Shown: positions 1,214-28,958, counted from the stretch's first letter. The stretch: DNA of 63,649 bases from Gemmatimonadota bacterium (GCA_039586795.1 JBDHJS010000018.1:1-63649); one strand, 5' to 3'. The notes: generated by a model from the sequence alone, not told the origin. Numbers and translations are program-made.

Positions 1214-1300
1214 CTCGCCTCGATTGCCAACATGTCGATGTCGACCCAATTGACGCCATGACAACTTCCGGAAATAGAGATCATTCAACCTTCACTTCAA

Positions 1301-1498: not shown

Positions 1499-2011
1499 CT
1501 ACTTGTCGCCAGGTAAAACGACGCTGTCGATCACGTGGATCACGCCATTGCTGGCCGAGATGTCGGTCTTGATGATCTGGGCGTCGTCGATATACGCCTT
1601 ACCGTCCTTCATCCAGATTTTCAGCTCCTCGCCCTGTACCGTCTTTAGAGAGCTCATCTCCAACACGTCACTGGCCATCAGCTCGCCGGGAACTACGTGA
1701 TACATGAGGATCGCCGCCAACTTCTCGCGATTCTCGGGCTTCAACAGCTCTTCGACCGTGCCGGCCGGCAATTTGGCGAACGCTTCATCCGTCGGCGCGA
1801 AAACCGTGAACGGGCCATCGCTCTTGAGGACGTCGACCAGACCCGCCGCCTGCGCCGCCGCGAGCAGCGTGTTGAACTGGCCCGCCGCGGAAGCGGTCTC
1901 GACGATGTCTCTGTCGTACTCGTGCGAGGACATGTGCTGCGCTTGGGCCGGCAAGCTCACCGCGAGGATCGCTGCCAGCGCTACCAAAGGAGAAATCATC
2001 CGTTTCTGCAT
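1499..2011 (-). CDS. Secreted fasciclin (FAS1) domain protein
   Basis: Signal peptide (AQA), [10 protein letters not shown] (H1), [20 protein letters not shown] (H2); AGGAGG RBS. Confidence 0.95.
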
Positions 2012-2095
2012 CCTGCTATCCTCCTATTTTGCCCGGCCTCAACCGAGCCTGGGGAACCTGGCGGGTGGCCCCAAATAGCCACGTGGCCGCCTTGT

Positions 2096-2193
2096 TGTCT
2101 AAGTGTTGTCAATTAAACTAATGGACAATACCTCGATGTCAATGGTTTGTCTAACATCTAATTCTTGACATTTAATGGACAGAGTCATACTTT
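2096..2193. promoter_or_regulatory. Divergent promoter with CarH/LitR-type operator (11-bp-spaced TNGACA pairs)
   Basis: Minus-strand motifs at 2096/2107 and 2137/2148, plus-strand motifs at 2165/2176. Plus promoter TTGACA-N17-TACTTT (2165-2193); minus promoter TTGACA-N16-TAGTTT (2142-2115). Confidence 0.75.
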
Positions 2194-2202
2194 TCGATCA
2201 CC

Positions 2203-3201
2203 ATGATTAAGAAACGTGTTGTGAACGAGCCTGAACACAGCGTGAAACGCCACCCGATCCGGGTCGTCTCCCGGCGCACGGGTCTCAGCCGCGACGTCTT
2301 GCGGGCCTGGGAAAGCCGCTACGGGTTGCTTGATCCGGAGCGCTCGAAGGGGGGCCAGCGACTGTATTCGGATGAAGACATACAGCGGCTGCAGCTGATC
2401 CGCCGTTCCCTGGAGGCGGGGCGTCGCATCGGCCAGGTGGCAAGGCTCCCGATCGAGGAGTTGCAGCACCTGGTGAATGAGGACCTGCGGGCCGGCGAGT
2501 CCAGGCCAGACGGCGATGGCCATGTCGGTTCGCGTCCCGAGGCACTCAAGCTGCTCGAAGCGAGCCTGGCGGCGGTGGAGGATCTGAACCCGAAGGGTCT
2601 GGAGACCGCGCTGAGCCGTGCCGCTGTGTCCCTGCCGGCCTCCGCCTATATCGACCGGGTCCTCACGCCGCTGCTGATCGGGATCGGGGACCTCTGGGCG
2701 GCCGGGTTCATCACTCCGGGCCACGAGCGCGTCGCCACCATGATCATCAGACGCCAGCTCGACCAGATTCGCACCGCAGCCAACGACCCTGAGGGTCCGT
2801 TGCTCGTGGTCGCCACGCCTTCCGGTCAGCATCACGAGTTAGGCGCTATGTTGGCGGCGGCGGCAGCCGCGACGGCGGGGTGGCAGGTCGTCTACCTGGG
2901 GCCGGATCTGCCCTCAGGATCGATAGCCAAGGCGGTGGTGGAGACGGGGGCTGCGGCGATGGCGCTCAGCATCACTTACCCGCCATCCGATCCGGGCTTG
3001 CTGGTGGAGCTCCGGGAGGTGCGGCGTTTACTGCCGAATGGCTTCCCTGTTATCGTTGGTGGACGTGCAGCGGCGAGCTACCAAGATGTGTTGGAGGAGA
3101 TCGAGGCTGTCCGTCTACCCAATGAACCGTCGGTGCGCTCGGCCCTTGATTGGGTCCGCTTATCACGAGAGGTGCGGGAGCCGAGCCAAGCGTCCGACTA
3201 G
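2203..3201 (+). CDS. carH: MerR-family regulator with B12-binding domain (CarH/LitR-like), paralog 1
   Basis: MerR HTH (LRAWESRYGLLDPERSKGGQRLYS), helical bundle W-x9-ER, Rossmann QHHELG...YLG...ALSIT...VGG. Confidence 0.9.
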   Translation: MIKKRVVNEPEHSVKRHPIRVVSRRTGLSRDVLRAWESRYGLLDPERSKGGQRLYSDEDIQRLQLIRRSLEAGRRIGQVARLPIEELQHLVNEDLRAGESRPDGDGHVGSRPEALKLLEASLAAVEDLNPKGLETALSRAAVSLPASAYIDRVLTPLLIGIGDLWAAGFITPGHERVATMIIRRQLDQIRTAANDPEGPLLVVATPSGQHHELGAMLAAAAAATAGWQVVYLGPDLPSGSIAKAVVETGAAAMALSITYPPSDPGLLVELREVRRLLPNGFPVIVGGRAAASYQDVLEEIEAVRLPNEPSVRSALDWVRLSREVREPSQASD

Positions 3202-3213
3202 TTGAGCGGATCG

Positions 3214-4674
3214 ATGACCGTACCGGAGTCAAGAGTAACGACCTGCACGAACGCTCCGTCTCGCGAAGACGGAGCGTTCGTGCTCTACTGGATGGTCACC
3301 AGTCGACGCACGCGCTGGAATTTCGGGCTGCAGCACGCCGTGGACTGGGCGCAGCGGCTCAACAAGCCGCTGCTGGTCCTCGAAGCGCTGCGCAGTGGTT
3401 ACCCGTGGGCCAGTGACCGCATCCATCGCTTCGTTCTTGACGGAATGGCAGACAACGCCAGGCGTCTGCAATCCACCGCGGCGACGGCCTACAGCTATAT
3501 CGAGGACGAACGCGGCGCCGGCAGCGGGCTGCTGGAAGCGCTCGGCGAACAGGCCTGCGTCGTCATCGCTGACGAGTATCCCGCCTTCTTCATCCCTCGG
3601 ATGATCGCGGCTGTGGCCCCCCGTATTGGGGTGCGTTTCGAACAGGTCGACTCCAACGGACTACTGCCCCTGCGTGCCAGCGAAAGGGTCTTCCCTACCG
3701 CGCACTCTTTCCGCAGACACCTACAGAAGACGTTGCCGGCGCATCTCGCGGCAATTCCCGACGAGGATCCGCTGAAGGGTGTCGACCTGCCCCGCCTGGC
3801 GGGGCTTCCCAAGCCGATCCTCGAGCGCTGGCCCAACGCGATGGACTCGCTGATCGCCGGAGACATCACGCTGAGCGAATTGCCCATCGATCATGCGGTA
3901 GCGACGGTCGACATGGTGGGCGGCGCTGCCGAAGCGGACCGCCGGTTGGAGCGCTTCATCGACCAGAGGCTCGATGACTATGCCGAGCTAAGAAACCACC
4001 CCGACCATGAAGCGACCACTGACCTGTCTCCCTACTTACACTTCGGACACGTGTCGACTCATGAGATCTTCGCGCGACTGAGCGCTCGTGAGGATTGGGA
4101 TGTAGATCGCCTGGACGCCGACACCAGCGGCAAGCGGAGCGGCTGGTGGGGGATGAGCGAGAGCGCTGAGGCGCTGCTCGACCAGCTCGTCACCTGGCGC
4201 GAACTGGGCTTCAACATGTGCGCGCTGGCCGCTGACTACGAAAGCTACGAGTCGCTACCGGGTTGGGCGCAGACGACGCTGGCCGAACATGAGCGGGACC
4301 ACCGCCCGCACCTCTACACGCTGGCCGAGTTGGAGCGTGCGCGTACCCACGATCATTTGTGGAACGCCGCCCAGACGCAGCTGCTCCGCGAGGGCCGTCT
4401 TCACAACTATCTGCGCATGCTGTGGGGAAAGCGCATCCTCGAGTGGAGTCCCACGCCGCGCGACGCGCTGGACGTGATGATCGAGCTGAACAACAAGTAC
4501 GCCCTGGACGGCCGCGACCCCAACTCCTACAGCGGTATCTTCTGGTGCCTGGGTCGCTACGATCGCGCCTGGGGCCCCGAGCGACCGATCTTCGGCAAGA
4601 TCCGCTACATGAGCTCGGAGAATACTCTGCGCAAGCTGCGGCTCTCCGAGTACCTGGAGCGCTACACGCCGTGA
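3214..4674 (+). CDS. Class II CPD deoxyribodipyrimidine photolyase
   Basis: VLYWM, LSPYLHFG, HNYLRMLWGKRILEW, DGRDPNSY, FGKIRYM. Alternative TTG start at 3202. Confidence 0.93.
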   Translation: MTVPESRVTTCTNAPSREDGAFVLYWMVTSRRTRWNFGLQHAVDWAQRLNKPLLVLEALRSGYPWASDRIHRFVLDGMADNARRLQSTAATAYSYIEDERGAGSGLLEALGEQACVVIADEYPAFFIPRMIAAVAPRIGVRFEQVDSNGLLPLRASERVFPTAHSFRRHLQKTLPAHLAAIPDEDPLKGVDLPRLAGLPKPILERWPNAMDSLIAGDITLSELPIDHAVATVDMVGGAAEADRRLERFIDQRLDDYAELRNHPDHEATTDLSPYLHFGHVSTHEIFARLSAREDWDVDRLDADTSGKRSGWWGMSESAEALLDQLVTWRELGFNMCALAADYESYESLPGWAQTTLAEHERDHRPHLYTLAELERARTHDHLWNAAQTQLLREGRLHNYLRMLWGKRILEWSPTPRDALDVMIELNNKYALDGRDPNSYSGIFWCLGRYDRAWGPERPIFGKIRYMSSENTLRKLRLSEYLERYTP

Positions 4675-6350
4675 CCCTCTTCACCCGCCAGTTGTCTGAA
4701 CGGCAGCCCTCGTCACACGACCGCCGCTGGCTCTACGTACCCTACGATCAGCTGTCGGATCGCATCGGACCTCTGTCGCGAGAAGACCCCGCCGAGCTCG
4801 GCATTGTGCTGGTCGAGAACGCCTGGAAGGCGGCACTACGTCCTTACCACAAGGCCAAACTGGTGCTAATCCTGGCAAACCAGCGGCACTTCGCCCTGGA
4901 ACAGGCCGCGCGCGGCGTCGCGGTCCGCTACGAATTCGCGAATGCCCCGTTTGCAGAAGCGCTAGCCGTACCGGTTGACGAGCTCGGTCCGCTCCGCGTC
5001 ATGGAGCCTGCCGAGCGAGAGCTGCGCGTCGACCTGGCGCCGTTGATTGGGGCTGGCGGTCTCCAGGTCATTCCCCACGAAGGCTGGCTGACGACGGAAG
5101 ATGATTTCCGCGCCAGTCACCCGAAGGGGCCGCCGTGGCGCATGGACAAGTTCTACAGATATGTGCGCAAGAAGACGCGCATCTTGATGGAGGATGGCAA
5201 GCCGGTCGGCGGCAAGCTCAGCTTCGACAGCGATAACCGCAGCGCCTGGCAGGGTGACCCGCCGCCGCCCGAGCTGCCAAGCTTTCCACTCGATGAGATC
5301 AAGCAGGAAGTGCTCGATCTCATCGAGGAGCGTTTTTCCCAGCACCCCGGCCAGCTCGATCCGCAAGCGCTGCCGGCCACGGCGACCGACGCGACGGCGC
5401 TCTGGCAGTGGGCACGGGCGGAATGCCTACCGCGCTTCGGCCCCTACCAGGACGCCATGTCCTTGCGCTCGGACAGCCTCTTTCACACGCGCATATCGGC
5501 GCTGCTGAATCTGCATCGCGTGACCCCGCGTCAGGTCGTCGATGACGCGCTCGCCGTCGATGCGCCCATCGCGAGTATCGAAGGATTCATTCGCCAGGTG
5601 CTGGGCTGGCGCGAGTACGTGCGACACGTTCACCGGGCCACCGACGGATTCCGATCGGCCCCCACAGGCACCGTGGCCGTGGCGGCGGAACCCGGCGACG
5701 GCGGATACGAACGTTGGCAAGGCGAAAGTTGGAAGCGGCCGTCGCTGGAATCCGACTTGGATGGAGGCGCCCAGCCCTCCGACCTCGGATCGGCTGAGCC
5801 GCTCCCTTCCGCCTTCTGGTCCGGGGGCTCAGGGCTGAACTGCCTGGACCATGTGGTCAAGGATGTCTGGTCGACGGGCTACGGCCATCACATCACGCGC
5901 CTGATGGTCCTCGCCAACATCGCGACTCTGGTCGATACGTCTCCCAGGCAATTGACCGATTGGTTCTGGTGTGCCTACGCGGATGCTTACGATTGGGTGG
6001 TTGAACCCAATGTTCTGGGAATGGGGAGCTACGGCGTTGGCGAACTGATGACCACCAAACCCTACATTTCGGGCGCCGCCTACATCAACCGGATGAGCGA
6101 TTATTGCGCTGACTGCGGATTCGACCCGAAGACGAACTGCCCGATAACCGGACTTTACTGGTCGTTCCTCGACCGCCACGAGGAGAAGCTAGCGTCGAAC
6201 CCACGACTGCGCCTACCGATGGCATCGCTACGAAAGCGATCTGTCCAGCAGCGCCAGCGCGACCGAGCCGTCTTCGAATGGGTGCGCACCAAATTCGGAC
6301 AGGGCGCACAGCTGCGGCCGGGTGAGGTCAGCCACCCGAAGGATTGCTGA
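4671..6350 (+). CDS. FeS-cluster bacterial cryptochrome/(6-4) photolyase (FeS-BCP, PhrB/CryB-like)
   Basis: DQL, HKAKL, EGFIRQVLGWREY, HHITRLM, DAYDWVVEPNVLGM, TKPY; four Cys (LNCL, YCADC, NCP). GTG start overlaps the upstream TGA (GTGA). Confidence 0.92.
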   Translation: MTLFTRQLSERQPSSHDRRWLYVPYDQLSDRIGPLSREDPAELGIVLVENAWKAALRPYHKAKLVLILANQRHFALEQAARGVAVRYEFANAPFAEALAVPVDELGPLRVMEPAERELRVDLAPLIGAGGLQVIPHEGWLTTEDDFRASHPKGPPWRMDKFYRYVRKKTRILMEDGKPVGGKLSFDSDNRSAWQGDPPPPELPSFPLDEIKQEVLDLIEERFSQHPGQLDPQALPATATDATALWQWARAECLPRFGPYQDAMSLRSDSLFHTRISALLNLHRVTPRQVVDDALAVDAPIASIEGFIRQVLGWREYVRHVHRATDGFRSAPTGTVAVAAEPGDGGYERWQGESWKRPSLESDLDGGAQPSDLGSAEPLPSAFWSGGSGLNCLDHVVKDVWSTGYGHHITRLMVLANIATLVDTSPRQLTDWFWCAYADAYDWVVEPNVLGMGSYGVGELMTTKPYISGAAYINRMSDYCADCGFDPKTNCPITGLYWSFLDRHEEKLASNPRLRLPMASLRKRSVQQRQRDRAVFEWVRTKFGQGAQLRPGEVSHPKDC

Positions 6351-7851
6351 CCTCGGTGCTCGCCGCGCGGTGGGCGTGTCCGGCGGCGCCGTTCTCTCCC
6401 TCGGCCATCGCCGCTACAATGCCGCGCAGCGTACCGGCGAAGACCAACTGGTGCAGCGGAAACAGCGCGTACCAGTAGAGCAACCCCAACAGCCCCACCG
6501 GGTCGAAGATCGACGTTTGCCGGATGGTTGACCCATTCCCTTCCGGCTCGACTTCGAACTGCAACCACGCGCGCCCGGGCAGCTTCATCTCGGCGTAGAG
6601 CCGTAGCAGCTTGTTCGGCTCTATCGCCTCCACACGCCAGAAATCGAGCGCGTCACCGGGAACTAGGTTTTCAGGATCGCGGCGACCACGTCGCAAGCCC
6701 ACGCCGCCAACAAGCAGATCGAGGAAGCCGCGCAGCTGCCAAAGCCGGTTATTTCCGGAGTACCAACCGGTGGCGCCACCGATGCGTTGGATCGGCCGAA
6801 ACGCCTGCTCGGGCCGATACGGCACTCGAGCCGTACGCGAGTCGACGATACGCGAACCGAACTTCGCGCCTCCCCATTCCAGCGTGTCTCCCGACGAGAG
6901 CGCGTCTGACCAGCTAGTCGCGGCGAACTCCTGGTCTTCGTTGACCAGCGCCCGCTCGATCGCTTCGCGAATTCCCCGCGGCCGGATGTCGGGAAACAAC
7001 CAGACCGCCGCGTCGTCATCCACCACCGTGGCGTTGCGCAGGCTGTCGATCAGCTCCCGACCGACGCGGGCATAGACCGGAGTCACTAGCCCCAACCAGA
7101 GGCTGGAGAGCCGAGGACTGAGGACCGGAACACGAATCATGAACCGCCTCAGCCCGCGCTGACGCGCGTACTCCTTCATGATGTCCATGTAGGAGACCGC
7201 GTCGCCGCCGCCAATTTCCACCACGCGACTTTCCTGCAACTGGATGCTTCGCGCGCTCACCAGATACCCGATCAGGTCCTCGATTGCCAACGGTTGCGTC
7301 TGTTGGCTTACCCAACGCGGCGTGATCATCACGGGGAGCTTCTGCACCAGGGCACGAATCATCTCGAACGAAAGACTTCCCGACCCGATGATGATCGAGG
7401 CGCGCAGTTCGACTGTCGCGACGCCGGACTCGCGAAGGATACGGCCCACTTCCTGGCGGCTCCGCAAGTGCGGCGAGAGCCCGGGCTCGCGGCCGAGGCC
7501 GCCCAGATAGATGATCCTGCGGACCCCGGAGTCACGGGCCGCCTGCGCGAAGTTGTGAGCAGCGCGGCGGTCCTCTTCCTCGAAGTCACCCCGCGAGCCC
7601 ATGGAGTGGATCATGTAGTAGGTCACATCCACGCCCGCCATCGCTCTTCGCAGCGACTCGACGTCGAACACATCACCCGCCACCACCTCAGTCGAAGTTG
7701 CGACTCGGGGTGTCAAGAACTCGGGTCGACGGGCCAGGCAGCGGATCGGTTCATTGCGTCGCTCCAGCTCCCTAACTAACCGACCACCCACGTAACCGCT
7801 GGCTCCTGTCACCAGCGTCAATCCGGCTGAGGCTTCGTGCGGTTCAGTCAT
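6328..7851 (-). CDS. NAD(P)-binding SDR-like protein with C-terminal DUF2867 (YbjT-like)
   Basis: TGASGYVG, YYMIHSM, LRASIIIGSGS, LDFWRVE, AEMKLPGRAWL. Confidence 0.88.
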   Translation of the reverse strand: MTEPHEASAGLTLVTGASGYVGGRLVRELERRNEPIRCLARRPEFLTPRVATSTEVVAGDVFDVESLRRAMAGVDVTYYMIHSMGSRGDFEEEDRRAAHNFAQAARDSGVRRIIYLGGLGREPGLSPHLRSRQEVGRILRESGVATVELRASIIIGSGSLSFEMIRALVQKLPVMITPRWVSQQTQPLAIEDLIGYLVSARSIQLQESRVVEIGGGDAVSYMDIMKEYARQRGLRRFMIRVPVLSPRLSSLWLGLVTPVYARVGRELIDSLRNATVVDDDAAVWLFPDIRPRGIREAIERALVNEDQEFAATSWSDALSSGDTLEWGGAKFGSRIVDSRTARVPYRPEQAFRPIQRIGGATGWYSGNNRLWQLRGFLDLLVGGVGLRRGRRDPENLVPGDALDFWRVEAIEPNKLLRLYAEMKLPGRAWLQFEVEPEGNGSTIRQTSIFDPVGLLGLLYWYALFPLHQLVFAGTLRGIVAAMAEGENGAAGHAHRAASTEVSNPSGG

Positions 7852-7871
7852 GCTGCGGCGGTCACCTCCGT

Positions 7872-8657
7872 TCAGCGCTCGGCACGTCGCGGGAACCAGG
7901 GGAAGAACGCGTTGGTGCGCTCCGCATAGTCACGATAGGCCGGCTTCGTCTCCTTCAAATTCTTCTCCAGCAGCGTCACTCCGGAGACCCGTCTCAAGAG
8001 CAACGTCATGAGCAGCGGGCTGTAGACCGTCCACCACGCGCCGGGCGTCGCCGCGGCGAAGCAGAACAACCCCCACCAGAGGAGGGCATCACCGAAGTAG
8101 TTGGGGTGCCGCGTATAGCGCCAGAAACCCCGTTCCATCACTTGGCCTCGGTTCGCCAGGTCGCTCTTGAAACGCGCCAATTGCCAGTCGCCGCCCGCTT
8201 CGAACAGAAAGCCTACGGCGAACAGCACGACACCTAGCATGTCGAGCCAAATCAGCTCGACGGGCTGCGCGCTGCGCTCCGCCTTCATGAGCGGCATCGA
8301 TATCGCCCACAGCAAGACGGCTTGCAGCCAGAACACTGTTATCAAGCTGCGGGCGGGAAACGTCTTGGGATTCGCTTCGCGCATCGCCTGGTACCGATAG
8401 TCCTCACCCCGGCCCCAGTTGCGCCAAAGGATATACAGCGAGAGCCTGACGCCCCAGACGGTCACGAGCGCCGCGACCAGATACGACCGCGTTGTCGGTG
8501 ACGGGCTGAACCCGAAGTAGAGCCAGGCTATGACCGCGAAGCCAAGGCCCCAGACGACGTCGATGATGCTTGCGTCCTTCTTCATGAGACTCAGCACCCA
8601 CGCTACGGTCATCATACCGAGGGCAGCGCCAAGCGCTACGAACGCGGTCGAGTACAT
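7872..8657 (-). CDS. DUF1295 / steroid 5-alpha-reductase-like membrane protein
   Basis: IDVVWG, GEDYRY, DWQL, GFWRYTRHPNYFGD, SGVTLLE; multiple TM segments. Confidence 0.9.
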   Translation of the reverse strand: MYSTAFVALGAALGMMTVAWVLSLMKKDASIIDVVWGLGFAVIAWLYFGFSPSPTTRSYLVAALVTVWGVRLSLYILWRNWGRGEDYRYQAMREANPKTFPARSLITVFWLQAVLLWAISMPLMKAERSAQPVELIWLDMLGVVLFAVGFLFEAGGDWQLARFKSDLANRGQVMERGFWRYTRHPNYFGDALLWWGLFCFAAATPGAWWTVYSPLLMTLLLRRVSGVTLLEKNLKETKPAYRDYAERTNAFFPWFPRRAER

Positions 8658-9764
8658 CTAGCCGACCAGCCCATGCGTAAGTTGCCTGAACGTCGGTCGC
8701 GGGACCCCGGCCGCCGGCTTTGGCGAGAACCGATAGTGGGAGACCCACCACTCATTTCCGCCGTTGAACGCAAACAACTCCGCGCACGCCATGAAGAATA
8801 GTCGCCATCGCATTAGCCAACGGCGCGCCGCGACTGGACCATAGATCTCGCGAAATAAGTCCAGCACTTGCTCGCGTCGAGCGTCGAGATTTCTCAGCCA
8901 CGCCTCAGCAGTCTCAGCGTAGTGTCGGCCATTCACCACCCAATGGTCGGTCAGCGCCATGTCCTGCTGGAAATGGAGCAGCAGGTCGTCGGACGGCATG
9001 ATGCCACCGGTGAAAAAGTAGCGACCCATCCAGTTCCCCGCCCCCTCGATTTCGAACGGGTATGCGACCGTTCGGTGACAGAAGATGTGAACAAACAGCT
9101 CGCCGTCAGGCTTCAGCCAACCAGAGATTCTGCGCAGCAGCACTTCGTAGTTCCGCATGTGCTCGAACATCTCGATCGAAATGACCCGGTCGAACTCGCG
9201 ATCCGTATGGAAGTCGTTCATATCGGCGGTAACGACCTCGACGTTCCTCAGGCCGCGGCGTCGGCACTCTCCCTCGATGAAACGACGTTGTGACGACGAG
9301 TTCGACACCGCGACGATCTCGCTGTTCGGATACCGGCTCGCCATCCAGAGTGTCAGGGAGCCCCACCCGCAGCCGAGCTCGAGGATCGACTGACCGTCCT
9401 GCAATCGCGCGCGCTCGCATGTCAGCCTCAACATTGCCGCTTCAGCCTCATCCAATGAAGACACACCGGCTGGCCAGTAAGCGCTCGAGTACTTGCGCTC
9501 TTTCCCGAGCACCAGTTGATAGAACTCCGCCGGTACTTCGTAGTGCTGCTCGTTCGCGGCGCTGGGATGAATAGCCACCGGGCTGTCTCTGAGCGCCGCG
9601 ATGAAGCCGCGCATCATCTGCCGCTGGACCTCTGCGTTCTCTCGCATTTCCTGACGAAGCCGCGCCTTCAGTAGGCGGCGTATGCCCCAACGCACCAGCG
9701 CGTCGGGCACTCGGCCACGCTCGGTCAGGTCTATTAGCACTGATTGAAGAGTCTCGAATCTCAT
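8658..9764 (-). CDS. SAM-dependent methyltransferase, CFA/CMAS family (coclaurine N-methyltransferase-like branch)
   Basis: [42 protein letters not shown]. Start 9764 (ATG) or 9779 (GTG). Confidence 0.9.
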
Positions 9765-9783
9765 ATTAATAACACACACTCTC

Positions 9784-11061
9784 TCATGTCGCAGGCGCGC
9801 CTATCGTCTTGTTCAGCGGATTCACGCCGGTGTCGATCTCTGTCCTGCGTTCATACGGCCAGGCGGGCAGCGACCGATTCCCGGCCCGCGCGAAGACGAG
9901 CTGAAGATCGTAGATATAGCGCTCGGCAAAGCCACCTTCGCAGTAGGCCAGGTAGTATTCCCAGCGGCGGATGAAAGCATCGTCAAAGCCGAGCGCTCTC
10001 ACTTCAGCCACCCGCTCGAGGAATTGCAGTCGCCATCGCCGCAACGTCTCGGCATAATGGATGCCGATATTCTCCAGCCCCTCGATCGAGAGCTGGGTAT
10101 GATCCGCGACCGCATTGGTCATCGCCTGTAGCGAGGGCAGCAGCGAGCCCGGGAAGATGTACTTGTTTATGTAGTCCGGACGCCGACGATAAGAGCCGTA
10201 TCTCTGATCGGGAATCGTGATTACCTGGACTACAGCCAGGCCATCATCGTCAAGCAGTTCGTCAACCTTGGCGAAGAACGCCGGTAGGTACGCATGACCC
10301 ACCGCCTCGAGCATCTCGATGGAAACGATCTTGTCGAAGCGGCCCGTCATTTGACGATAGTCGATCAGCTCGATGCTTACGCTGTCCTCGAGGCCGGCGC
10401 GCTTCATACGCTGCCGGGCATAGCGTGCCTGCTCCTCCGAGATCGTGATACCAATCACTCGGCACCCGTATTCCCGAGCCGCGAACTCGGCAAAGCCTCC
10501 CCACCCGCAACCGATCTCCAGGACACGATCATCGCGCTCGAGGCGCGCTTTCTCGGCGATCTTCCGGTACTTGTTCCGTTGAGCTTGCTCTAGCGTGTCC
10601 GCTTCACTCGCAAAGTACCCGCACGAATAGGTCATCGAAGGATCGAGGAAGAGGGCAAAGAAGTCGTTGCTCAGATCGTAGTGTTCCCGAATGTTGCGAC
10701 GGGAACCGCCGATCGTGTTCCTGCGTAGCCGATGCCGTATGAGATCGAGCAGTCCGCCCAGCCAGGCGACGGGAGACGAGCTGTCGAGGACTCTGGCATT
10801 CACGATTCCCAAACGAATCAGTCCAACGAGATCATCCGCCTCCCACTCGCCGCGAATGTAGGACTCACCGACCCCGGTGCCGCCCTCCAACAGCATCCGT
10901 CGGAAGAACGCCCAGTCGCGCACCCGAACCTTAACTTCCGGTCCCGAACCGGTGGCACCTTCGTAGACGCCCGTCTTGCCGTCCGGGGTCGTCACCTCGA
11001 GCCGGCCACGATCGAGACGACCGAGAGCACCTAGGATCAAACGCGCTGCGGTGCTAGCCAT
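9784..11061 (-). CDS. cfa: Cyclopropane-fatty-acyl-phospholipid synthase family methyltransferase (UfaM/CfaS-like)
   Basis: [61 protein letters not shown]. Confidence 0.93.
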
Positions 11062-11839
11062 TGGTCCTCCACGCCTGTGGCGGCAACTCCGGCTTCGGAT
11101 AGAAGGGCGCCCGCTTGAACCAGAGTTTGAGCGCCTGCCAATGTATCAGGAACATCGTTCGCGCCGTCATGTGCGGGTAGCGAAACAGCGACCACACCAG
11201 GTTGCGGCCGCTGAAGCGCTTCTGCTTCATATTCAACGTCGCATCGAAGAACTTGGCACCGTCCCTGAACGCGTCGATTTGAACGGTCAGCGATTCTCCC
11301 GGCGGAGTCATCACCCAGTCGTAGTGAATGTTCTCCATTCCGATGAACGGCGACACATGAAACACCTTCTGCCGTCGCGCGATCAACGCCCGACCGCGCA
11401 GCGGCTTGAGGTCGTCCAGCAGATAACAGTAGGTCTCACCGAACGTGTTGTTCACCTCGGCGACGATGAAACGTAGTTCTCCCGCTTCGCTGAAGCAGTA
11501 GTAGTAGCTCACCGGATTGAATACATAGCCCAGCACCCGAAGGTTGGTGAGCAGTTGCACCGGCCCGTCGCCCAGGTCGACGCCCCGTTCCGCCAGCCAC
11601 ACCGCGAGCTTGGCTCGAACCGGCTCCGGGCTCGCCCCCATGTGGTCGCGGTCGTGAAAACTGGTGATGTTGGCTCGATTGTAGCCGAAGATCGCTACCC
11701 GCTCGGCGAGCAACGGCAACTCGTCGAGATCGAGCAGGACCTGGTAGACCCCGTACGTAAACGCGTTCTTGACCGGCTCCGATCTGCGGTGCCGGATCGT
11801 GCCGGCGAAGATCGCTGAGTTCAATTGTTCCTTGCTCAT
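11054..11839 (-). CDS. DUF1365 protein (UfaO-like)
   Basis: HRR, GYVFNPVSYYYC, AEVNNTFGE, KVFHVSPF, IHWQALKLW. ATG 11839 overlaps the upstream TGA (ATGA). Confidence 0.92.
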   Translation of the reverse strand: MSKEQLNSAIFAGTIRHRRSEPVKNAFTYGVYQVLLDLDELPLLAERVAIFGYNRANITSFHDRDHMGASPEPVRAKLAVWLAERGVDLGDGPVQLLTNLRVLGYVFNPVSYYYCFSEAGELRFIVAEVNNTFGETYCYLLDDLKPLRGRALIARRQKVFHVSPFIGMENIHYDWVMTPPGESLTVQIDAFRDGAKFFDATLNMKQKRFSGRNLVWSLFRYPHMTARTMFLIHWQALKLWFKRAPFYPKPELPPQAWRTNG

Positions 11840-13098
11840 GGCATACTGATCCCGAACATATCCGCCACCTGCACAGCCGACCGTAAGCCGTCCTCGTGAA
11901 AACCGTAGCCGAAATGGGCGCCGCAGAAGTACGTGCCCCGGGGACCGTTCAGCCCGGGCAGTTCGCTCTGGGTCTGCACGGCAACTTCGGTGAAGACCGG
12001 ATGCATGTAGCTCATGCGCTTGATCACGCAATCGGCGGCCGGCGGCCGGGCCGGGTTGAGCGTAACAATGAAGTCCTCTTTTGTCTCCAACTGCTGCAGT
12101 CGGTTCAGATAGTAACTCACCGAAACCGAGTCGCTTGATTTCTGACAATCCGACTGCATGTAGCTCCAAGATGCCCAGGCGGCAGGGCGCCGCGGCAAAT
12201 GACTGGTGTCCGTGTGCAACCAGGTGTCGTTCCGGGAGTAGCTCCAGCGGGATAGCAGTTCGTGCTCCTCACGAGACGGGTCGCAGAGCATGGCCAGCGC
12301 CTGATCCGCGTGCGCCGCGATCACCACTCGATCGAACAGGTGCGAACTACCGTCATGCAAGAAAAGGCGCGGCCCATCGTTTGTCCGGGCAATCCCCTTC
12401 ACCGGCGTGTTCAGGTGAACGCGTTCTTCGAAGTCACGCGTCACGGCTCTCACGTAATTCTGGCTACCGCCAGACACCGTGCGCCACTTGAGACGATCCT
12501 TGACCTGCAGCAAACCGTGTGTCTCGAAGAACCGGAGCAGGCTCTGCATCGGGAACTCCTCGATCGCCCCCGTGCCCGATGACCAGAGGGCAGATGCCAT
12601 CGGTACGAGGTAGTGGGCGCTGAAGTCCCGTCCGTATTCGCCGGCTGAGAGAAACTCGCCCAACGTCTGGTTACGGGCGGTTCCCTCCTCCAGCGCCCGC
12701 CGCCCGGCCCGATTGAAGCGCTCAATGTCGGCCAGCATCCGATAATGGGATGGCCGCAGCAGATTGCGCCGCTGTGCAAAGAGGCCGCGGATGCTATGCC
12801 CGCTATACTCGACGTCGCAGCGCTCGCAGCTTATCCCGAACGACATGTCGGTCTCCTGCGACTCGACCCCGAGCCGCTCGAAGAGACGCGTCAGGTTCGG
12901 GTAGTTGTCCTGGTTGAAAACCAGGAACCCGGTGTCCAACCCCAGGCGACGACCGTCCGACTCGACGTCGACAGTGTGGGCGTGGCCTCCCAGTCGGTCA
13001 CGGGCCTCGAACAGGTGGACGTCATGTTTCCGATTCAGCAGCCACGCTGCCCCGAGTCCCGATACTCCGCTTCCTATAACTGCTACGCGCATTTGCAC
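11836..13098 (-). CDS. FAD-dependent oxidoreductase (amine oxidase-like; UfaD-like fatty acid desaturase)
   Basis: VAVIGSGVSG, RLGGHAHT, DTGFLVFN...YPNL, AWASW, YMHP, GYGFHEDG. Confidence 0.92.
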   Translation of the reverse strand: MQMRVAVIGSGVSGLGAAWLLNRKHDVHLFEARDRLGGHAHTVDVESDGRRLGLDTGFLVFNQDNYPNLTRLFERLGVESQETDMSFGISCERCDVEYSGHSIRGLFAQRRNLLRPSHYRMLADIERFNRAGRRALEEGTARNQTLGEFLSAGEYGRDFSAHYLVPMASALWSSGTGAIEEFPMQSLLRFFETHGLLQVKDRLKWRTVSGGSQNYVRAVTRDFEERVHLNTPVKGIARTNDGPRLFLHDGSSHLFDRVVIAAHADQALAMLCDPSREEHELLSRWSYSRNDTWLHTDTSHLPRRPAAWASWSYMQSDCQKSSDSVSVSYYLNRLQQLETKEDFIVTLNPARPPAADCVIKRMSYMHPVFTEVAVQTQSELPGLNGPRGTYFCGAHFGYGFHEDGLRSAVQVADMFGISMP

Positions 13099-13155
13099 TT
13101 ACCGTGATCGTGCAGGTTCCGTGTGCCCCGGCAAGGCCTGGGGGTCGACCGCTGC

Positions 13156-13240
13156 TGTCGAACTAGTGTCAAAGAATATGCGGCCCTATCCAACTTTTGT
13201 CAAGCTATTTGCTCGCCAAAAGATAGACAAACCATGGACA
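13156..13240. promoter_or_regulatory. Divergent promoter with CarH/LitR-type operator (11-bp-spaced TNGACA pairs)
   Basis: Minus-strand motifs (plus reads TGTCGA/TGTCAA) at 13156/13167 and (TATCCA/TGTCAA) at 13187/13198; plus-strand TAGACA/TGGACA at 13224/13235. Confidence 0.75.
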
Positions 13241-13327
13241 GTGGGGGTCCTGCGACCCTCTTGCCGATCGCCGGTTTTTTTCGAGTATTAGCCAGATCTC
13301 TGAGCTGATGGAGGAAAGATCCCTAAA

Positions 13328-14296
13328 ATGACCGACGCTGCAAGACCGATTGTCGTCGTCAGCCGTTGCCTGGACTTCGAGCCGGTGCGCTACAACGGCC
13401 AGGTGATACCCTACGAATTCGTGCGTGAGCTGGAGCCGTTTGTGACCTACGTGCTGATCTGCCCGGAGCTCGAGATCGGTCTGGGAGTTCCCCGGGACCC
13501 GATTAGGATCGTGGCGATCGACGGCGAAGCGCGACTCATCCAACCGGATACCGGTGGCGACCTCACCGGCGAGATGGAGAGATTCTCGGGCCGCTTCCTG
13601 GGCTCGCTGGGCGAAGTCGACGGGTTCATCCTCAAGAACCGTTCACCCTCCTGCGGGATCAGCGACGTCAAGATCTATCAGGGCCTTGAGCCGTCGGCGT
13701 CGTCGGAGCGCGGGCCGGGCTTCTTCGGCGGCGCGGTGCTGGAGCGCTTCCCGGGGATGGCGATCGAAGACGAGGGTCGGCTACGCAACTACGCGATACG
13801 CGAGCACTTCCTGTCCCGACTGTTCGCCCTGGCCCGGCTGCGCGGAGTGAAGAAGACCGGGGCGATGCGAGAGCTGGTGCGCTTCCAGGCGGAGAACAAG
13901 CTGTTGCTGATGGCTTACAACCAGAAGGAGCTGCGCGAACTGGGACGGATCGTGGCGAACCCCGGCAAGTCCCCGTTCGCGGAGGTCGTCGAAAACTATG
14001 AGAGTCATTTCCAGGCGGCGCTGTCACGTGCACCGCGCTATACGTCAGTGATCAACGTTTTCGAGCATGCGGCAGGCTACTTTTCAAAGGAGCTCAACCG
14101 CAACGAGAAGGCCTATTACAGGAGGGCGTTGGAGAGGTACCGAAAACGGCAAGTCCCGGTAAGCGCGGTCACCTCGATTCTGCGTGCCTGGATCGTTCGC
14201 TTCGACGAACCCTACCTAATGCCGCAGACCTTCTTCACTCCCTACCCCGAAGAACTGATGAGCGTCAGCGACTCAGGCAAAGGTCGTCAGGCCTGA
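13328..14296 (+). CDS. ybgA: DUF523-DUF1722 fusion (YbgA/RudS-like [4Fe-4S] thiouridine desulfidase)
   Basis: SRCL...VRYNG, ICPE.EIGLGVPR, ILKNRSPSCG, EDEGRL, NVFEHAAGYF, QTFFTPYP. Confidence 0.9.
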   Translation: MTDAARPIVVVSRCLDFEPVRYNGQVIPYEFVRELEPFVTYVLICPELEIGLGVPRDPIRIVAIDGEARLIQPDTGGDLTGEMERFSGRFLGSLGEVDGFILKNRSPSCGISDVKIYQGLEPSASSERGPGFFGGAVLERFPGMAIEDEGRLRNYAIREHFLSRLFALARLRGVKKTGAMRELVRFQAENKLLLMAYNQKELRELGRIVANPGKSPFAEVVENYESHFQAALSRAPRYTSVINVFEHAAGYFSKELNRNEKAYYRRALERYRKRQVPVSAVTSILRAWIVRFDEPYLMPQTFFTPYPEELMSVSDSGKGRQA

Positions 14297-14312
14297 CCCC
14301 TCAGCTAGCGCG

Positions 14313-15245
14313 CTACGACATATCGTTCAGGGTCGACCGTAGCTCATCGAGACTCTCGACGCGCTGGGCGCCAATTCTGTCCAGGACCTTCGCATAGCTG
14401 TCGGTGCTGGCGCCGCCCACCAGTATCGGAACATCGTCGGACAGCTCCTTACGCAACTCGAGGAGCGACTCGACCAACTCATCCGCATCGAACCCCGGGC
14501 TGACGATGCTCAGCGCTACCGCTTCGGCGCCCGTCGAGTTGGCGGTCGCCGCGATGTCCGCGCCGGGAAGATCTCGACCCAGATATGTCACGCGCCAACC
14601 CTCCGACGCCGCTGTCGCCGCGGCGAATAACGCGCCAAACTCGTGTAACTGACCCGCCGGTGTAGCGACGACCAGGTTCGGGGCCTCTCCGGAAGGCTCC
14701 GCCGCCGCTATCACATCGCCAAGAACTCGAACGACGATCGCCGACGCCAGATGCTCGTTCGCCGGGCTCAGCATGCCGTGGCTCCACCGCTCACCAATCT
14801 GCCCGAGTAGCGGCGCCAACACACCTTCGATGAGCACCGGGCCACTCAGCGTGATCAGGGCGCGATTGAGTGTCGCTTCCAACTCCCGCGGGTTGAGTCG
14901 CTCGACGGCCGCGAGGCAAGCTTTGAGAAAGATCCCCGCTGACAGGTCAGTTTCCGCTCCCGTCGCTGCCGTCGCCTCCTCGCTTTCATCCTCCTCGACC
15001 ATCGCCGCGAGCTCGTCGATGTTCAGCTTCGATATTCGACTGATTCGGCGACCGGCGTCGCTGGCCCTCTTCAGCAGACGCAACCGCTCGACATCTTCAT
15101 CAGAGTACAGCCGCCGACCCCCTTCCGTCCGCTCCGGCTCAACGACGCCGTAGCGCTTCTCCCAGGCCCGCAGGAGATCCAACGACAGACCCGTCCGGCG
15201 CGCGACGACTTGTATGGGATGACGTTTTTCGTCCGCTGGACTCAT
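14313..15245 (-). CDS. carH: MerR-family regulator with B12-binding domain (CarH/LitR-like), paralog 2
   Basis: MerR HTH (LRAWEKRYG...GGRRLYS), canonical W-x9-EH (WSHGMLSPANEH), QLHEFG...YLG...ALSIV...VGG. ATG 15245 after GGAGG. Confidence 0.9.
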   Translation of the reverse strand: MSPADEKRHPIQVVARRTGLSLDLLRAWEKRYGVVEPERTEGGRRLYSDEDVERLRLLKRASDAGRRISRISKLNIDELAAMVEEDESEEATAATGAETDLSAGIFLKACLAAVERLNPRELEATLNRALITLSGPVLIEGVLAPLLGQIGERWSHGMLSPANEHLASAIVVRVLGDVIAAAEPSGEAPNLVVATPAGQLHEFGALFAAATAASEGWRVTYLGRDLPGADIAATANSTGAEAVALSIVSPGFDADELVESLLELRKELSDDVPILVGGASTDSYAKVLDRIGAQRVESLDELRSTLNDMS

Positions 15246-15289
15246 CTCACCCTCCGCGTGAAGCCACAAACCGCCCGTCAATCCAGCAA

Positions 15290-15346
15290 AGAGTAACGCG
15301 GCCGGCGAGATGCTGTCAAGCACGTGTCATAGACAAAGAGTAGACG
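15290..15346. promoter_or_regulatory. Divergent promoter with CarH/LitR-type operator
   Basis: Plus reads TGTCAA 15314 / TGTCAT 15325 (minus pair) and TAGACA 15330 / TAGACG 15341 (plus pair), each 11 bp apart. Minus promoter TTGACA-N18-TACTCT. Confidence 0.68.
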
Positions 15347-15426
15347 CCCAGCCCCGTTACGCCGTGTCTTTGACCGACGTGCTATATTGCTTCTCTCTTC
15401 TGAAACACTCGTTGCTCTGGGGTGTG

Positions 15427-16245
15427 ATGCTAGCGCTAGGAATCGGGCTGGGCCTACTGATCGGTCTCGCCCTCGGCCTGTTGGGCGGGGGCGGCTCCAT
15501 CCTGACAGTTCCGATCTTCGTCTACGTGTTGGGCTACGATGCCAAGCAGTCAATCGCGATGAGCCTGGCGGTCGTCGGCGTGACAGCGCTGTTCGGTGCG
15601 GTTGGCCACTGGCGGATCGGGAACGTTCACACCCGTGTTGCCCTGGTATTTGGGGCGGTGGCGATGGCCGGCACCTATCTGGGGGCGCGGCTTTCGGTCT
15701 TTTTCAGCGGAGCGGTGCAGCTCGTGCTGTTTGCCCTGGTGATGATCGTCGCTGCCTACTTCATGTTGCGGGGCAGCGTTCCCGGGGTGCGCGCGGTGCC
15801 TAAAGACCTTCAGCCCGAGAAGAGGCGGAGCGTTCCAATCCTACTGATCGCGGTGGAGGGGATAGCGGTTGGCGTGCTGACCGGTCTGGTCGGCGTGGGA
15901 GGCGGATTCCTGATCGTGCCCGTTTTGGTGCTGTTAGCACGCATACCCATGAAACAGGCGGTGGGAACCTCCCTGGCGATCATCGCGATGAAGTCAATGA
16001 CGGGATTCGCGGGCTATCTCGGCCAGGTCGAGATCGCCTGGGGATTCATGGTCACGTTTACGGCCGTAGCGATCGTCGGGATCATGCTGGGTACAGTCCT
16101 GGTCCGGTTCGTACCGCACAAAACGTTGCGGAAGGGTTTTGCCATCTTCCTGTTGCTAATGGGTGCCGCGATTCTCTACCAGAACCGGGGCGTATTCATA
16201 CCGGAAGCGGAGGCGAAGGATGTTGTTGAAGCGTTTCTACGATGA
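15427..16245 (+). CDS. TauE/SafE family sulfite exporter
   Basis: LGLLGGGGSILTVP and TGLVGVGGGFLIVP repeats, AVGTSL; about 8 TM segments. Confidence 0.92.
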   Translation: MLALGIGLGLLIGLALGLLGGGGSILTVPIFVYVLGYDAKQSIAMSLAVVGVTALFGAVGHWRIGNVHTRVALVFGAVAMAGTYLGARLSVFFSGAVQLVLFALVMIVAAYFMLRGSVPGVRAVPKDLQPEKRRSVPILLIAVEGIAVGVLTGLVGVGGGFLIVPVLVLLARIPMKQAVGTSLAIIAMKSMTGFAGYLGQVEIAWGFMVTFTAVAIVGIMLGTVLVRFVPHKTLRKGFAIFLLLMGAAILYQNRGVFIPEAEAKDVVEAFLR

Positions 16246-17650
16246 CAAGCTCGCGCAGGCGAGCTACCTGGTGGGTTGCGCGGCAACCGGGGAGGCCCTT
16301 GTTGTCGACCCCAACCGAGACGTCGAGCCCTACGTCAAGGCGGCCGAAGAGGAAGGACTGCGCATCACGCACGTTACGGAGACGCACATCCACGCGGACT
16401 TCGTGTCTGGCTCCCGGGAGCTGGCCCGCTGTACCGGTGCGAAGATGTACCTGTCCGACGAGGGCGACGAGGATTGGAAGTACTTGTTCGCAGGCGAGGA
16501 TGGCGCCGTACTGCTGAAGGACGGGGACTCGTTCATGGTCGGGAACGTTCGCATCGAGGCGCTCCACACGCCGGGACACACACCCGAACACATTTGCTTT
16601 GTCGTCACGGACACCGCCAGCGCCAACGAGCCGATGGGCGTCTTCACGGGTGACTTCGTGTTCGTGGGGGACGTCGGACGACCCGATTTGCTCGAACGTG
16701 CCGCTCAGTACGAAGGAACGATGGAAATCGCCGCCAACAAGCTCTACGAGTCGATTCAGAACTTCCGCGGGCTTCCGGATTATCTGCAGCTCTGGCCCGG
16801 CCACGGCGCTGGCTCGGCCTGCGGAAAATCACTGGGCGCCGTACCTCAATCCACGGTCGGCTACGAGCGCATGTTCAACTGGGCATTCGGCTACACCGAG
16901 CAGCCCCCGTTCGTCGGTGCCGTGCTGGAGGGGCAGCCGGAGCCGCCGAAGTACTTTGCGGTGATGAAGCGAATCAACAAAGAGGGGCCGCCGATTCTGG
17001 GAGGTTATCGCAGGCCGCAGCGGCTGCCCGAGATGAGGCTGGCCGGTTTGCTCGAGGAGGGGGCAATCATCGTCGATACCCGCCAGACCGGCGATTTCGC
17101 CGAGGGCCACATTCCGGGAACGATAAACATCCCCTTCGACCGCTCCTTCACGACCTGGGCCGGCTGGCTCCTCCCGTACGATCGCGAGTTCTACCTGATC
17201 ATCGACGATCACGCCCAGCTGCAGGGCATTGACGAGGCGGTGCGCGATCTTTCCCTCATCGGACTCGACAATGTCGGTGGTTACTTTGGAAGCGCTGTGA
17301 TCAAGACCTGGGCCGAGGAAAGACGCAAGCTAGAAACATCCAAAGAGGTGACCGTGGGCGAATTGACCCGCAAGATGGCCGACGGCGGTGTTACGGTGAT
17401 CGACGTTCGCGGTCAGGTAGAGTGGGAGTCCGGCCATATGCCGGGCGTCGCCTGCATACCGCTGGGCTACCTCTCGGAGCGGTCCGCCGAGATACCCACA
17501 GACGGGACCGTCGTGCTGCACTGCCAGGAAGGCTGGCGTTCGGGGATCGGATCCAGCTTGCTCCGCGCCCTTGGCATGAAGAACGTCGTGAGCCTGAAGG
17601 GTGGCATCCGCGCCTGGATTACGGAGGGTCAGCCCGTAGAGAAGGAGTAG
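16220..17650 (+). CDS. MBL-fold persulfide dioxygenase with tandem rhodanese domains (CstB-like)
   Basis: ETHIHADF, TPGHTPEH, FTGDFVFVGDVGRPDL, PGHGAGSACGK, GHIPG, C-terminal rhodanese HCQEGWRS. ATG 16220 after GGAGG. Confidence 0.92.
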   Translation: MLLKRFYDDKLAQASYLVGCAATGEALVVDPNRDVEPYVKAAEEEGLRITHVTETHIHADFVSGSRELARCTGAKMYLSDEGDEDWKYLFAGEDGAVLLKDGDSFMVGNVRIEALHTPGHTPEHICFVVTDTASANEPMGVFTGDFVFVGDVGRPDLLERAAQYEGTMEIAANKLYESIQNFRGLPDYLQLWPGHGAGSACGKSLGAVPQSTVGYERMFNWAFGYTEQPPFVGAVLEGQPEPPKYFAVMKRINKEGPPILGGYRRPQRLPEMRLAGLLEEGAIIVDTRQTGDFAEGHIPGTINIPFDRSFTTWAGWLLPYDREFYLIIDDHAQLQGIDEAVRDLSLIGLDNVGGYFGSAVIKTWAEERRKLETSKEVTVGELTRKMADGGVTVIDVRGQVEWESGHMPGVACIPLGYLSERSAEIPTDGTVVLHCQEGWRSGIGSSLLRALGMKNVVSLKGGIRAWITEGQPVEKE

Positions 17651-20867: not shown

Positions 20868-20869
20868 GT

Positions 20870-21679: not shown

Positions 21680-21693
21680 GAAAATAGTCCCCT

Positions 21694-22266: not shown

Positions 22267-22276
22267 CTTATCACCT

Positions 22277-24136: not shown

Positions 24137-24149
24137 CGATGGCCCTCCA

Positions 24150-28942: not shown

Positions 28943-28958
28943 GATTATCAAGTTGCTC

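Follow-up and report, generated by a model that had tools for sequence, protein, structure and literature searches.

Can a light switch built on vitamin B12 govern a set of defence genes that includes no gene for carotenoid synthesis? The question is raised by a locus in a Gemmatimonadota bacterium (GCA_039586795.1), on a contig of 63,649 nucleotides (JBDHJS010000018.1, contig C106 here) that was analysed at its full length and is called the window below. A first-pass annotation had described positions 1499-17650 as a light-defence island in which two regulators of the CarH type, with a MerR DNA-binding domain and B12-binding domains, sit among genes for photolyases, furan lipids, tRNA desulfuration and sulfur handling. 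We found that the island is probably a carotenoid-free regulon around two class I CarH/LitR repressors, which would work as a B12 light switch. The basis for this in the sequence is the domain content and signature residues of the regulators, operators over -35 boxes, conserved synteny, and genes for the supply of adenosylcobalamin (AdoCbl). Binding of AdoCbl, a dark oligomer, release from DNA in the light and induction of the genes are expected by analogy with the CarH proteins of Thermus, Bacillus and Myxococcus.

All of the genes listed in the first-pass annotation are present at about the positions it gave, and every gene call stands. The three divergent promoters it proposed lie in the intergenic regions 2011-2203 (P1), 13098-13328 (P2) and 15245-15427 (P3). 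The genes for a fasciclin protein and a short-chain dehydrogenase/reductase (SDR) are read leftward from P1, and carH1, the gene for a class II photolyase and that for a photolyase of the iron-sulfur bacterial cryptochrome and photolyase (FeS-BCP) type are read rightward. From P2, ufaD, a DUF1365 gene, two methylase genes, and genes for DUF1295 and DUF2867 proteins are read leftward, and rudS rightward. From P3, carH2 is read leftward, and tauE, a gene for a metallo-beta-lactamase (MBL)-rhodanese protein and a proline dehydrogenase gene are read rightward. The conserved unit reaches beyond the island as first drawn, to the SDR gene on the left and the proline dehydrogenase gene on the right (Table 1).

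Predicted operators, which had gone unnoticed before, are present in all three divergent promoters. They are tandem 11-bp direct repeats of the form TnGACA-N5-TnGAC[AG]. The published CarH operator is a tandem nnnnTnnACAn (PMC9304148), and the predicted sites have this form and this position over a promoter: the repeats overlap sigma70-like -35 boxes for carH1, the fasciclin gene, ufaD and carH2. The predicted promoters are TTGACA-17-TACTTT toward carH1 and TTGACA-16-TAGTTT toward the fasciclin gene in P1, and TTGACA-17-CATATT toward ufaD in P2. Of 20 loci compared, 17 have the carH2 promoter in the form TTGAC[AG]-N18-TAnnnT. A generic promoter and terminator scan gave three promoters, against 3.7 expected by chance, and listed the P2 site and one P1 site.

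Are these repeats anything more than ordinary -35 boxes in a chance aggregate of genes? TTGACA is itself the hexamer of sigma70 -35 boxes, and matches become more frequent where intergenic DNA is AT-rich. Five of the ten genome-wide matches of the tandem pattern fall in the three island promoters, and the strict pattern occurs seven times in the genome against 0.92 expected. Because the pattern was drawn from the window, we used three further controls: relatives, a trained matrix and a Thermus locus. Five relatives contained 37 matches of the pattern and 3 of its reversed form. We trained a matrix on 33 operator sites of relatives, and five of the eight sites in this genome that it scored above 20 bits are P1 and P2 sites. 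On a 32.8-kb Thermus plasmid locus the same matrix gave two matches above 11 bits, both directly upstream of carH. The excess over the reversed pattern, the exact 11-bp periodicity, the recovery of the Thermus site, the same downstream genes across genera and the family-wide synteny all argue against a chance aggregate, which we regard as highly improbable and largely refuted already.

When the spacer was varied as a control, lengths of 1, 8 and 15 gave as many matches as a spacer of 5, or more. Most of these matches came from tandem arrays of a heptamer, and they were set aside; the arrays account for 5 of 5 matches at spacer 1 and 9 of 10 at spacer 8. This degenerate heptamer (GTAGACR-like) forms short tandem arrays on contigs C53, C68, C91, C22, C85 and others and mimics the operator hexamer.

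The synteny that the earlier annotation had expected in relatives was borne out, in that the core layout is conserved across a family of marine-sediment Gemmatimonadota. The named relatives are metagenome-assembled genomes of Gemmatimonadota/Gemmatimonadales that are 65-97% complete, and a count of zero therefore means not found, rather than absent. A full-length regulator homologue was present in 22 of 24 family relatives, DUF1722 in 19 and DUF1365 in 4. We compared 19 family loci, some of them on contigs that end early and two of them from one genome. The gene rudS adjoins carH2 in 17 of the 19, and in 7 of 8 family loci the fasciclin gene and carH1 are divergently oriented. Phylum-wide, 81 of 301 genomes have a regulator homologue. 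Among 11 loci from other families, a fasciclin gene is near the carH gene in 8, and crtB/crtI in 2. The same regulator type stands by crtI in four further loci of other Gemmatimonadota (crtB in 3, operator in 3).

We found no carotenoid (crt) gene among the open reading frames (ORFs) of the window (at least 90 amino acids up to 22 kb, with Pfam scans of 20; at least 200 amino acids beyond, by eye). Phytoene/squalene synthase was found in 0 of the 24 family relatives, as was a close CrtI. The claim that carotenoid genes are missing thus holds for the window and fails for the genome. The genome's only phytoene synthase gene sits on another contig, in a crtY-crtI-crtB cluster with a convergent crtZ-like gene (C44; L026 9186-13390), apparently outside the regulon. 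We considered CarH control of crtYIB/crtZ and rejected it; upstream, the matrix reached -6 and 1.7 bits at best, and 15 bits was exceeded nowhere on this contig. Since phytoene synthase was not found in the 24 relatives, crtYIB/crtZ may be a recent acquisition.

The two regulators, CarH1 and CarH2, both have MerR_1, PF02607 and PF02310 domains above the Pfam cut-offs. The best PDB sequence match of each is Thermus CarH (TtCarH; E ~1e-29), and an AlphaFold model of CarH2 (pLDDT 90) has Thermus CarH as its best fold match. Both have the N-terminal MerR recognition helix RxWExRY. The lower axial His of each aligns with His177 of Thermus, in a QxH motif instead of ExH. Their sequences support assignment of both to class I of the CarH/LitR proteins, those with two B12 domains.

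The two proteins had been presented as equal B12 photoreceptors. The shared class I architecture stands, and the equal rank does not. Together GxxW, EH, GxxH and GxxxP are described as an experimentally validated photoreceptor signature (PMC11796333), and Wx9EH as a CarH motif whose loss marks the CarH-to-CarA transition (PMC9304148). CarH2 has Wx9EH and the whole signature. CarH1 keeps GxxW, GxxH (His212) and GxxxP and has Arg at the position of His142, so that it reads Wx9ER; for this reason only CarH2 counts as a canonical photoreceptor. We built a quick tree of 71 homologues from Gemmatimonadota, using rows with alignments of at least 200 amino acids. In it the family's two copies formed separate clades, CarH1 with 16 rows (SH-aLRT 99) and CarH2 with 22 rows (support 96). 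The CarH1 clade has ER in 13 rows, ES in 1 and EH in 2. In contrast, EH is present in all 22 rows of the CarH2 clade and all 33 rows outside both clades (55 in total). Of the 150 best cluster representatives, 136 combine the Trp and EH with the lower His, and W-ER is found in 6. This family-wide duplication is the island's most distinctive feature.

What does CarH1 do? It shares the RAWExRY helix of CarH2 and so would bind the same operators. The sequences suggest that it is likely a dispensable paralogue in which the His-to-Arg change weakens or retunes the response to light. Another reading is a two-input circuit as in Myxococcus, with CarH2 as the photoreceptor and CarH1 as a light-blind co-repressor, like CarA, that is freed by another signal or partner. 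The separate CarH1 clade in the quick tree with ER in 13 of its 16 rows, the EH of all 55 other rows, the retained recognition helix and the reported meaning of Wx9EH loss (PMC9304148) all favor such a circuit. Against it, CarA has lost the Trp of Wx9EH and kept EH, whereas CarH1 has retained Trp and Glu, and neither an anti-repressor gene nor a sigma gene was seen in the island. In addition, CarH1 is broken in one relative (G011), split in another (G016) and absent from the loci of two more (G008 and G012), which suggests dispensability, and the substitution may be a tolerated one, given that Wx9ER occurs in 6 of the 150 representatives. We consider a two-input circuit unlikely; it is compatible with the light switch.

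Other CarH-like proteins were seen during the search. In one of 1202 amino acids (P0067), about 870 additional residues are fused to a CarH-like set of domains. On plasmid 2 of Gemmatirosa kalamazoonensis, a cultured member of the Gemmatimonadota, a CarH-like gene is accompanied by several operator-like sites (L173 5800-11000); the upper motif of its product seems degenerate. CarH-like matches on Allorhizobium and Comamonas plasmids had no shared output genes nearby.

The predicted regulon extends beyond the island. A ferritin-like gene and a divergent DUF3253-flavoprotein unit (C78 23550-23830; L023 about 7550-7830) are separated by the highest-scoring operator of the whole genome (29.8 bits), and the arrangement is similar in a relative (G015). 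An operator is present at a DUF4397 lipoprotein gene (C94 1-1560; L024), as in G001, G005, G015, G010 and G026, and another is upstream of a small hydrophobic ORF of ~56 amino acids (C4 about 56900-57200; L022 6900-7200), with a similar ORF and operator in G005. An HlyD-type gene has sites in other genera and only a weak site here (13.1 bits). That is, off-island sites precede the same genes (DUF4397, ferritin and DUF3253-flavoprotein, HlyD-type, small membrane protein) in several genera. We read 15 off-island pattern loci in relatives, and several (L089, L093, L097, L099) resemble chance matches or repeats. Homologues of lipocalin and DUF2177 genes elsewhere in this genome had no operator site. 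The genome (4.68 Mb, 97.8% complete) encodes a cobalamin adenosyltransferase, found also in 19 of the 24 relatives, and two mutase-family genes, and a cobalamin riboswitch precedes a TonB-receptor-like ORF.

Based on these results, we propose that in the dark, oligomers of CarH2 with AdoCbl would bind the 11-bp TnGACA repeats over the -35 boxes and repress P1, P2, carH2 and the off-island promoters, with CarH1 acting as a variant co-repressor on the same operators. In the light, the Co-C bond would be broken, the DNA released and repression lifted. The outputs would include repair of cyclobutane pyrimidine dimers (CPD) and of (6-4) lesions by the photolyases, and removal by RudS of UVA-sensitive 4-thiouridine from tRNA, along with the fasciclin, DUF2867 and DUF4397 proteins and the ferritin-like and flavoprotein pair. 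Where ufa genes are present, in a few genomes including this one, furan fatty acids made with O2 would scavenge singlet oxygen. The light-defence reading of the earlier annotation is thus well supported by the predicted operators, the class I regulators and the conserved synteny. Four public sequencing runs, all of them contigs, were compared with the island; in X13 and X20, which are labelled as RNA, only short pieces matched it, and these could come from DNA.

Several observations weigh against a B12 light switch. Both regulators score 129 bits with the NCBIfam CarH equivalog NF052513, below its cut-off of 400 bits, despite which this is the best-scoring family for each. His132, the light-state ligand in Thermus, is missing in both, with Ser in its place in CarH2, and Gln replaces Glu175 in both. 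The P3 operator is weak, at a score (11.9 bits) below that of the 44 sites in the genome exceeding 12 bits. The search pattern was written after the promoters had been seen, which makes the first count partly circular. Class II LitR is described as binding a related hexamer, TGTACA, without B12 (PMC9758184). The best DNA matches are to metagenomes from sediment, marine sediment and mangrove; they indicate a habitat in marine and mangrove sediment, where light is restricted to the surface. His132 is likewise missing in 123 of the 150 relatives, and Gln is found at position 175, as QxH, in 109. The validated CtMerR is also without His132 (PMC11796333). From the alignments, Gln175 and the missing His132 are subfamily-wide traits, not specific to this island.

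The sediment habitat and the missing His132 could also mean that the signal is oxygen, an oxidant or B12 availability, not light, and that loss or oxidation of AdoCbl frees the repressor at the oxic surface. The outputs include O2-dependent furan synthesis and ferritin-like and flavoprotein genes, and TtCarH is reported to require oxygen for effective monomerisation (PMC11796333). In contrast, the two photolyases require light, RudS addresses UVA crosslinks, CarH2 bears the full light signature, and the same regulator type and operator are found at crt genes in other lineages. We regard a signal other than light, be it oxygen or B12, as quite unlikely.

The class II CPD photolyase has its best PDB match at E 4e-75, with 2XRY at 1e-74. 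Its Trp387, Trp408 and Trp415 align with what we take to be the Trp triad positions of the Methanosarcina enzyme. The start of the FeS-BCP photolyase gene overlaps the stop codon of the upstream photolyase gene, and its product has the four Fe-S Cys (391/479/482/490) and the catalytic His407, at what are presumably the reference positions. The fasciclin protein shares its domain family with RSP_1409 and MPT70. Fasciclin genes are described as light-induced in M. kansasii (PMC9861118). RudS, a TudS-DUF1722 fusion, is described as an Fe-S desulfidase with defined catalytic residues (PMC11417400), and C14, C45, E47, R56, S106, S108 and C109 of the predicted RudS here match the catalytic set of RudS_KT. 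The genome encodes ThiI, and RudS would therefore have a substrate. Some relatives carry, inside the photolyase operon, an SRPBCC-epimerase fusion and a Nei/Fpg-like glycosylase (L027 7396-9400, L031 8975-11174, L036 13043-15258; by eye). Other stress genes inserted in the islands of relatives, also recognised by eye, are for a lipocalin, a desaturase and a symporter.

Furan lipids had been named as an output of the island. UfaO is described as containing DUF1365, and the trio UfaD-UfaO-UfaM as making furan fatty acids with O2 (PMC7380195). By Pfam families and gene order, the genes here are of this kind: those for an FAD desaturase, a DUF1365 protein and a methylase of the cyclopropane fatty acid type are adjacent, in the same order as ufaD-O-M of R. 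palustris. By this likeness, we infer a furan fatty acid as the product of the module. The genes are thus present as claimed, and they are not part of the core; with DUF1365 in 4 of 24 relatives, the module is an accessory insert.

The sulfur genes had likewise been counted as a light-defence output. They are present. We found no -35/-10 pair that faces tauE and overlaps the repeats in any of 20 loci; the repeats are upstream of the apparent -10. For this reason CarH control of sulfur handling is unproven, and we regard the unit of tauE, persulfide dioxygenase and proline dehydrogenase genes as linked to the island. It is possible, though doubtful, that the sulfur genes are a true fourth arm of the regulon, in which TauE and the persulfide dioxygenase-rhodanese clear sulfide from RudS or from damaged Fe-S clusters. 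In favor of this, each of the sulfur genes comes immediately after P3 in 10 of 19 family loci, two repeats are oriented toward them here and in relatives, and RudS is an Fe-S desulfidase. Besides the missing promoter overlap, tauE and the MBL-rhodanese gene are missing in several rudS-bearing loci, with proline dehydrogenase directly next there. A fourth arm would be compatible with the light switch. The proline dehydrogenase gene often directly follows the divergent region of carH2, and a second paralogue is on C66.

A wider scheme is imaginable, and unlikely. That is, the whole family may use a pigment-free, two-repressor B12 light defence in which the Wx9ER paralogue is a CarA-like partner that arose a second time, independently, and that holds cobalamin and responds to another signal (oxygen, sulfide or the form of B12) or sets the threshold for light by mixing with CarH2, and in which tRNA desulfuration is coupled to its own sulfide clean-up.

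Table 1. Features of the island and its extensions (positions in the window; a dot marks a feature given no strand).
Feature	Position	Strand	Remarks
SDR-family oxidoreductase	446..1288	-	3' of fasciclin gene, likely island extension; Pfam adh_short_C2 E 5e-61; position kept in many relatives
Fasciclin-domain protein, secreted	1499..2011	-	PF02469 E 3e-40
P1, divergent promoter	2085..2195	.	predicted operator pairs -2112/-2101, -2153/-2142, +2165/+2176; matrix 29.7, 22.3, 22.2 bits
CarH1	2203..3201	+	MerR_1 helix-turn-helix, B12-binding_2 four-helix bundle, B12-binding Rossmann domain
Class II CPD photolyase	3202..4674	+	TIGR00591 357 bits (below cut-off 550); PDB 2XRY/8OET
FeS-BCP (6-4) photolyase/cryptochrome, PhrB/CryB type	4671..6350	+	PF04244; PDB 8IJY/4DJA/3ZXS
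NAD(P)-binding and DUF2867 protein, core regulon member	6328..7851	-	47% identity to protein near Thermus carH
DUF1295 membrane protein	7872..8657	-	PF06966 E 2e-77
Second CMAS-family fatty-acyl methyltransferase	8658..9779	-	PF02353 E 5e-45
CMAS-family methyltransferase, predicted UfaM	9784..11061	-	PF02353 E 2e-90
DUF1365 protein, predicted UfaO furan-ring oxygenase	11054..11839	-	PF07103 E 2e-78
FAD oxidoreductase, predicted UfaD desaturase	11836..13098	-	PF01593 E 6e-27
P2, divergent promoter	13150..13250	.	predicted operators +13224/+13235 and -13203, 25.5 and 21.5 bits; -13172/-13161 weaker
RudS (TudS-DUF1722, i.e. DUF523-DUF1722), predicted tRNA 4-thiouridine desulfidase	13328..14296	+	
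CarH2	14313..15245	-	MerR-B12 regulator; GxxW, EH, GxxH, GxxxP all present
P3, promoter	15285..15350	.	carH2 promoter TTGACA-18-TACTCT overlapped by repeat pair; opposite pair +15330/+15341, 11.9 bits
TauE/SafE exporter, accessory	15427..16245	+	PF01925; 10/19 family loci
MBL-fold and tandem rhodanese protein, persulfide dioxygenase/sulfurtransferase-like, accessory	16220..17650	+	3TP9 E 1.5e-140, 3R2U; 10/19 family loci
Monofunctional proline dehydrogenase	17744..18676	+	conserved neighbour, 17/19 family loci

Two other features of the window were noted. A cluster of genes for electron-transfer flavoprotein alpha and beta, an ETF-quinone-oxidoreductase-like protein and an acyl-CoA-dehydrogenase-like protein is at 19848-26384, where we saw no connection with the island. 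The gene at 28953-31868 encodes, as judged by eye, a UvrD-like helicase into which a DnaQ-type exonuclease domain is inserted.

What do these results mean for B12 photoreceptors? They indicate that the switch is not tied to carotenoids: the regulator is in 22 of 24 relatives and phytoene synthase was found in none, and in the one genome that does have crt genes, these stand outside the network of predicted operators. Judging from the sequence, light likely turns on a pigment-free protection kit in these bacteria, by a variant of a light switch already known from bacteria, and exposure of these sediment bacteria to light and oxygen at the surface is suggested. The predicted operator gives a light-stress role to DUF2867, DUF4397, DUF3253 and small membrane proteins that are unstudied. 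A natural His142-to-Arg paralogue such as CarH1 beside a canonical copy is a clean pair for the function of the EH motif and could be used for B12 optogenetic tools.

How does the island compare with known systems? Like CarH/LitR of Thermus thermophilus (PDB 5C8D, 5C8E, 3WHP), the regulators have MerR and two B12 domains, CarH2 has Wx9EH and the lower His, and the predicted operator is an 11-bp TnnACA direct repeat in an autoregulatory layout. They differ in having ~33% identity to Thermus CarH, two paralogues, no His132 and Gln at 175. The carH locus on pTT27 of Thermus HB27 resembles the island in gene position, with phr, DUF523-DUF1722 (46% identity), DUF2867-SDR (47%) and DUF4397 beside crt. 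In contrast to the Thermus locus, the island has no crt gene or LdrP activator, and has class II and FeS-BCP photolyases and the ufa module. Defence outputs under a B12 photoreceptor had been put forward as an undescribed combination, which is overstated, since the differences from Thermus come down to the ufa module and the loss of crt. The novelty is modest, and it was overstated along with the furan and sulfur arms and the equal rank of the regulators. A precedent for much of the wiring is said to be PhrR of Halomonas, which Romine et al. reportedly described in 2017 as a MerR protein that binds B12 and controls photolyase genes and lipid genes of the cfa type, with no carotenoids involved. 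PhrR is gammaproteobacterial and reportedly also controls folate and ubiquinone genes. In the open literature, whose coverage leaves out key papers and supplements, we found no paper joining CarH with photolyase, cyclopropane and B12, none on a PhrR light/cobalamin regulon and none on a Gemmatimonad CarH.

CarH/CarA of Myxococcus are likewise duplicated MerR-B12 repressors with a shared RxWERRY helix and operator and one broken Wx9EH (PMC9304148). Myxococcus CarA is without Trp, keeps EH, is released by CarS and targets crt, whereas CarH1 keeps Trp-Glu and has His changed to Arg. No CarS/CarQ-like gene was seen at this island.

Class II LitR of Pseudomonas (PplR/PmlR) shares the outputs PhrB photolyase, CryB, UfaM, FAD oxidoreductase and SDR (PMC9758184), and RudS is described in the same operon type as this output set (PMC11417400). 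Class II LitR has no Rossmann B12 domain, is B12-independent, has a light-oxygen-voltage (LOV) partner and binds TGTACA-N12-TGTACA (PMC9758184). In contrast, both B12 domains and an N5 tandem site are present here. The RpoE-ChrR system of Rhodobacter sphaeroides shares phrA, cfaS/ufaM, ufaD, ufaO (DUF1365), fasciclin RSP_1409 and SDR (PMC7074977, PMC6852236, PMC7380195); its RpoE regulon table includes phrA, cfaS, RSP_1091/1090 and fasciclin (PMC7074977). A sugar symporter in the ufa operons of this bacterium's relatives is a further likeness. RpoE-ChrR differs in using sigma/anti-sigma activation by singlet oxygen and no repressor, and the ChrR cupin was not found in this 97.8%-complete genome. 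Matching gene lists confirm the likeness to the RpoE-ChrR and class II LitR outputs that had been noted at the outset. Here the same output kit is placed under a class I sensor, in keeping with a modular cassette whose regulators are exchanged.

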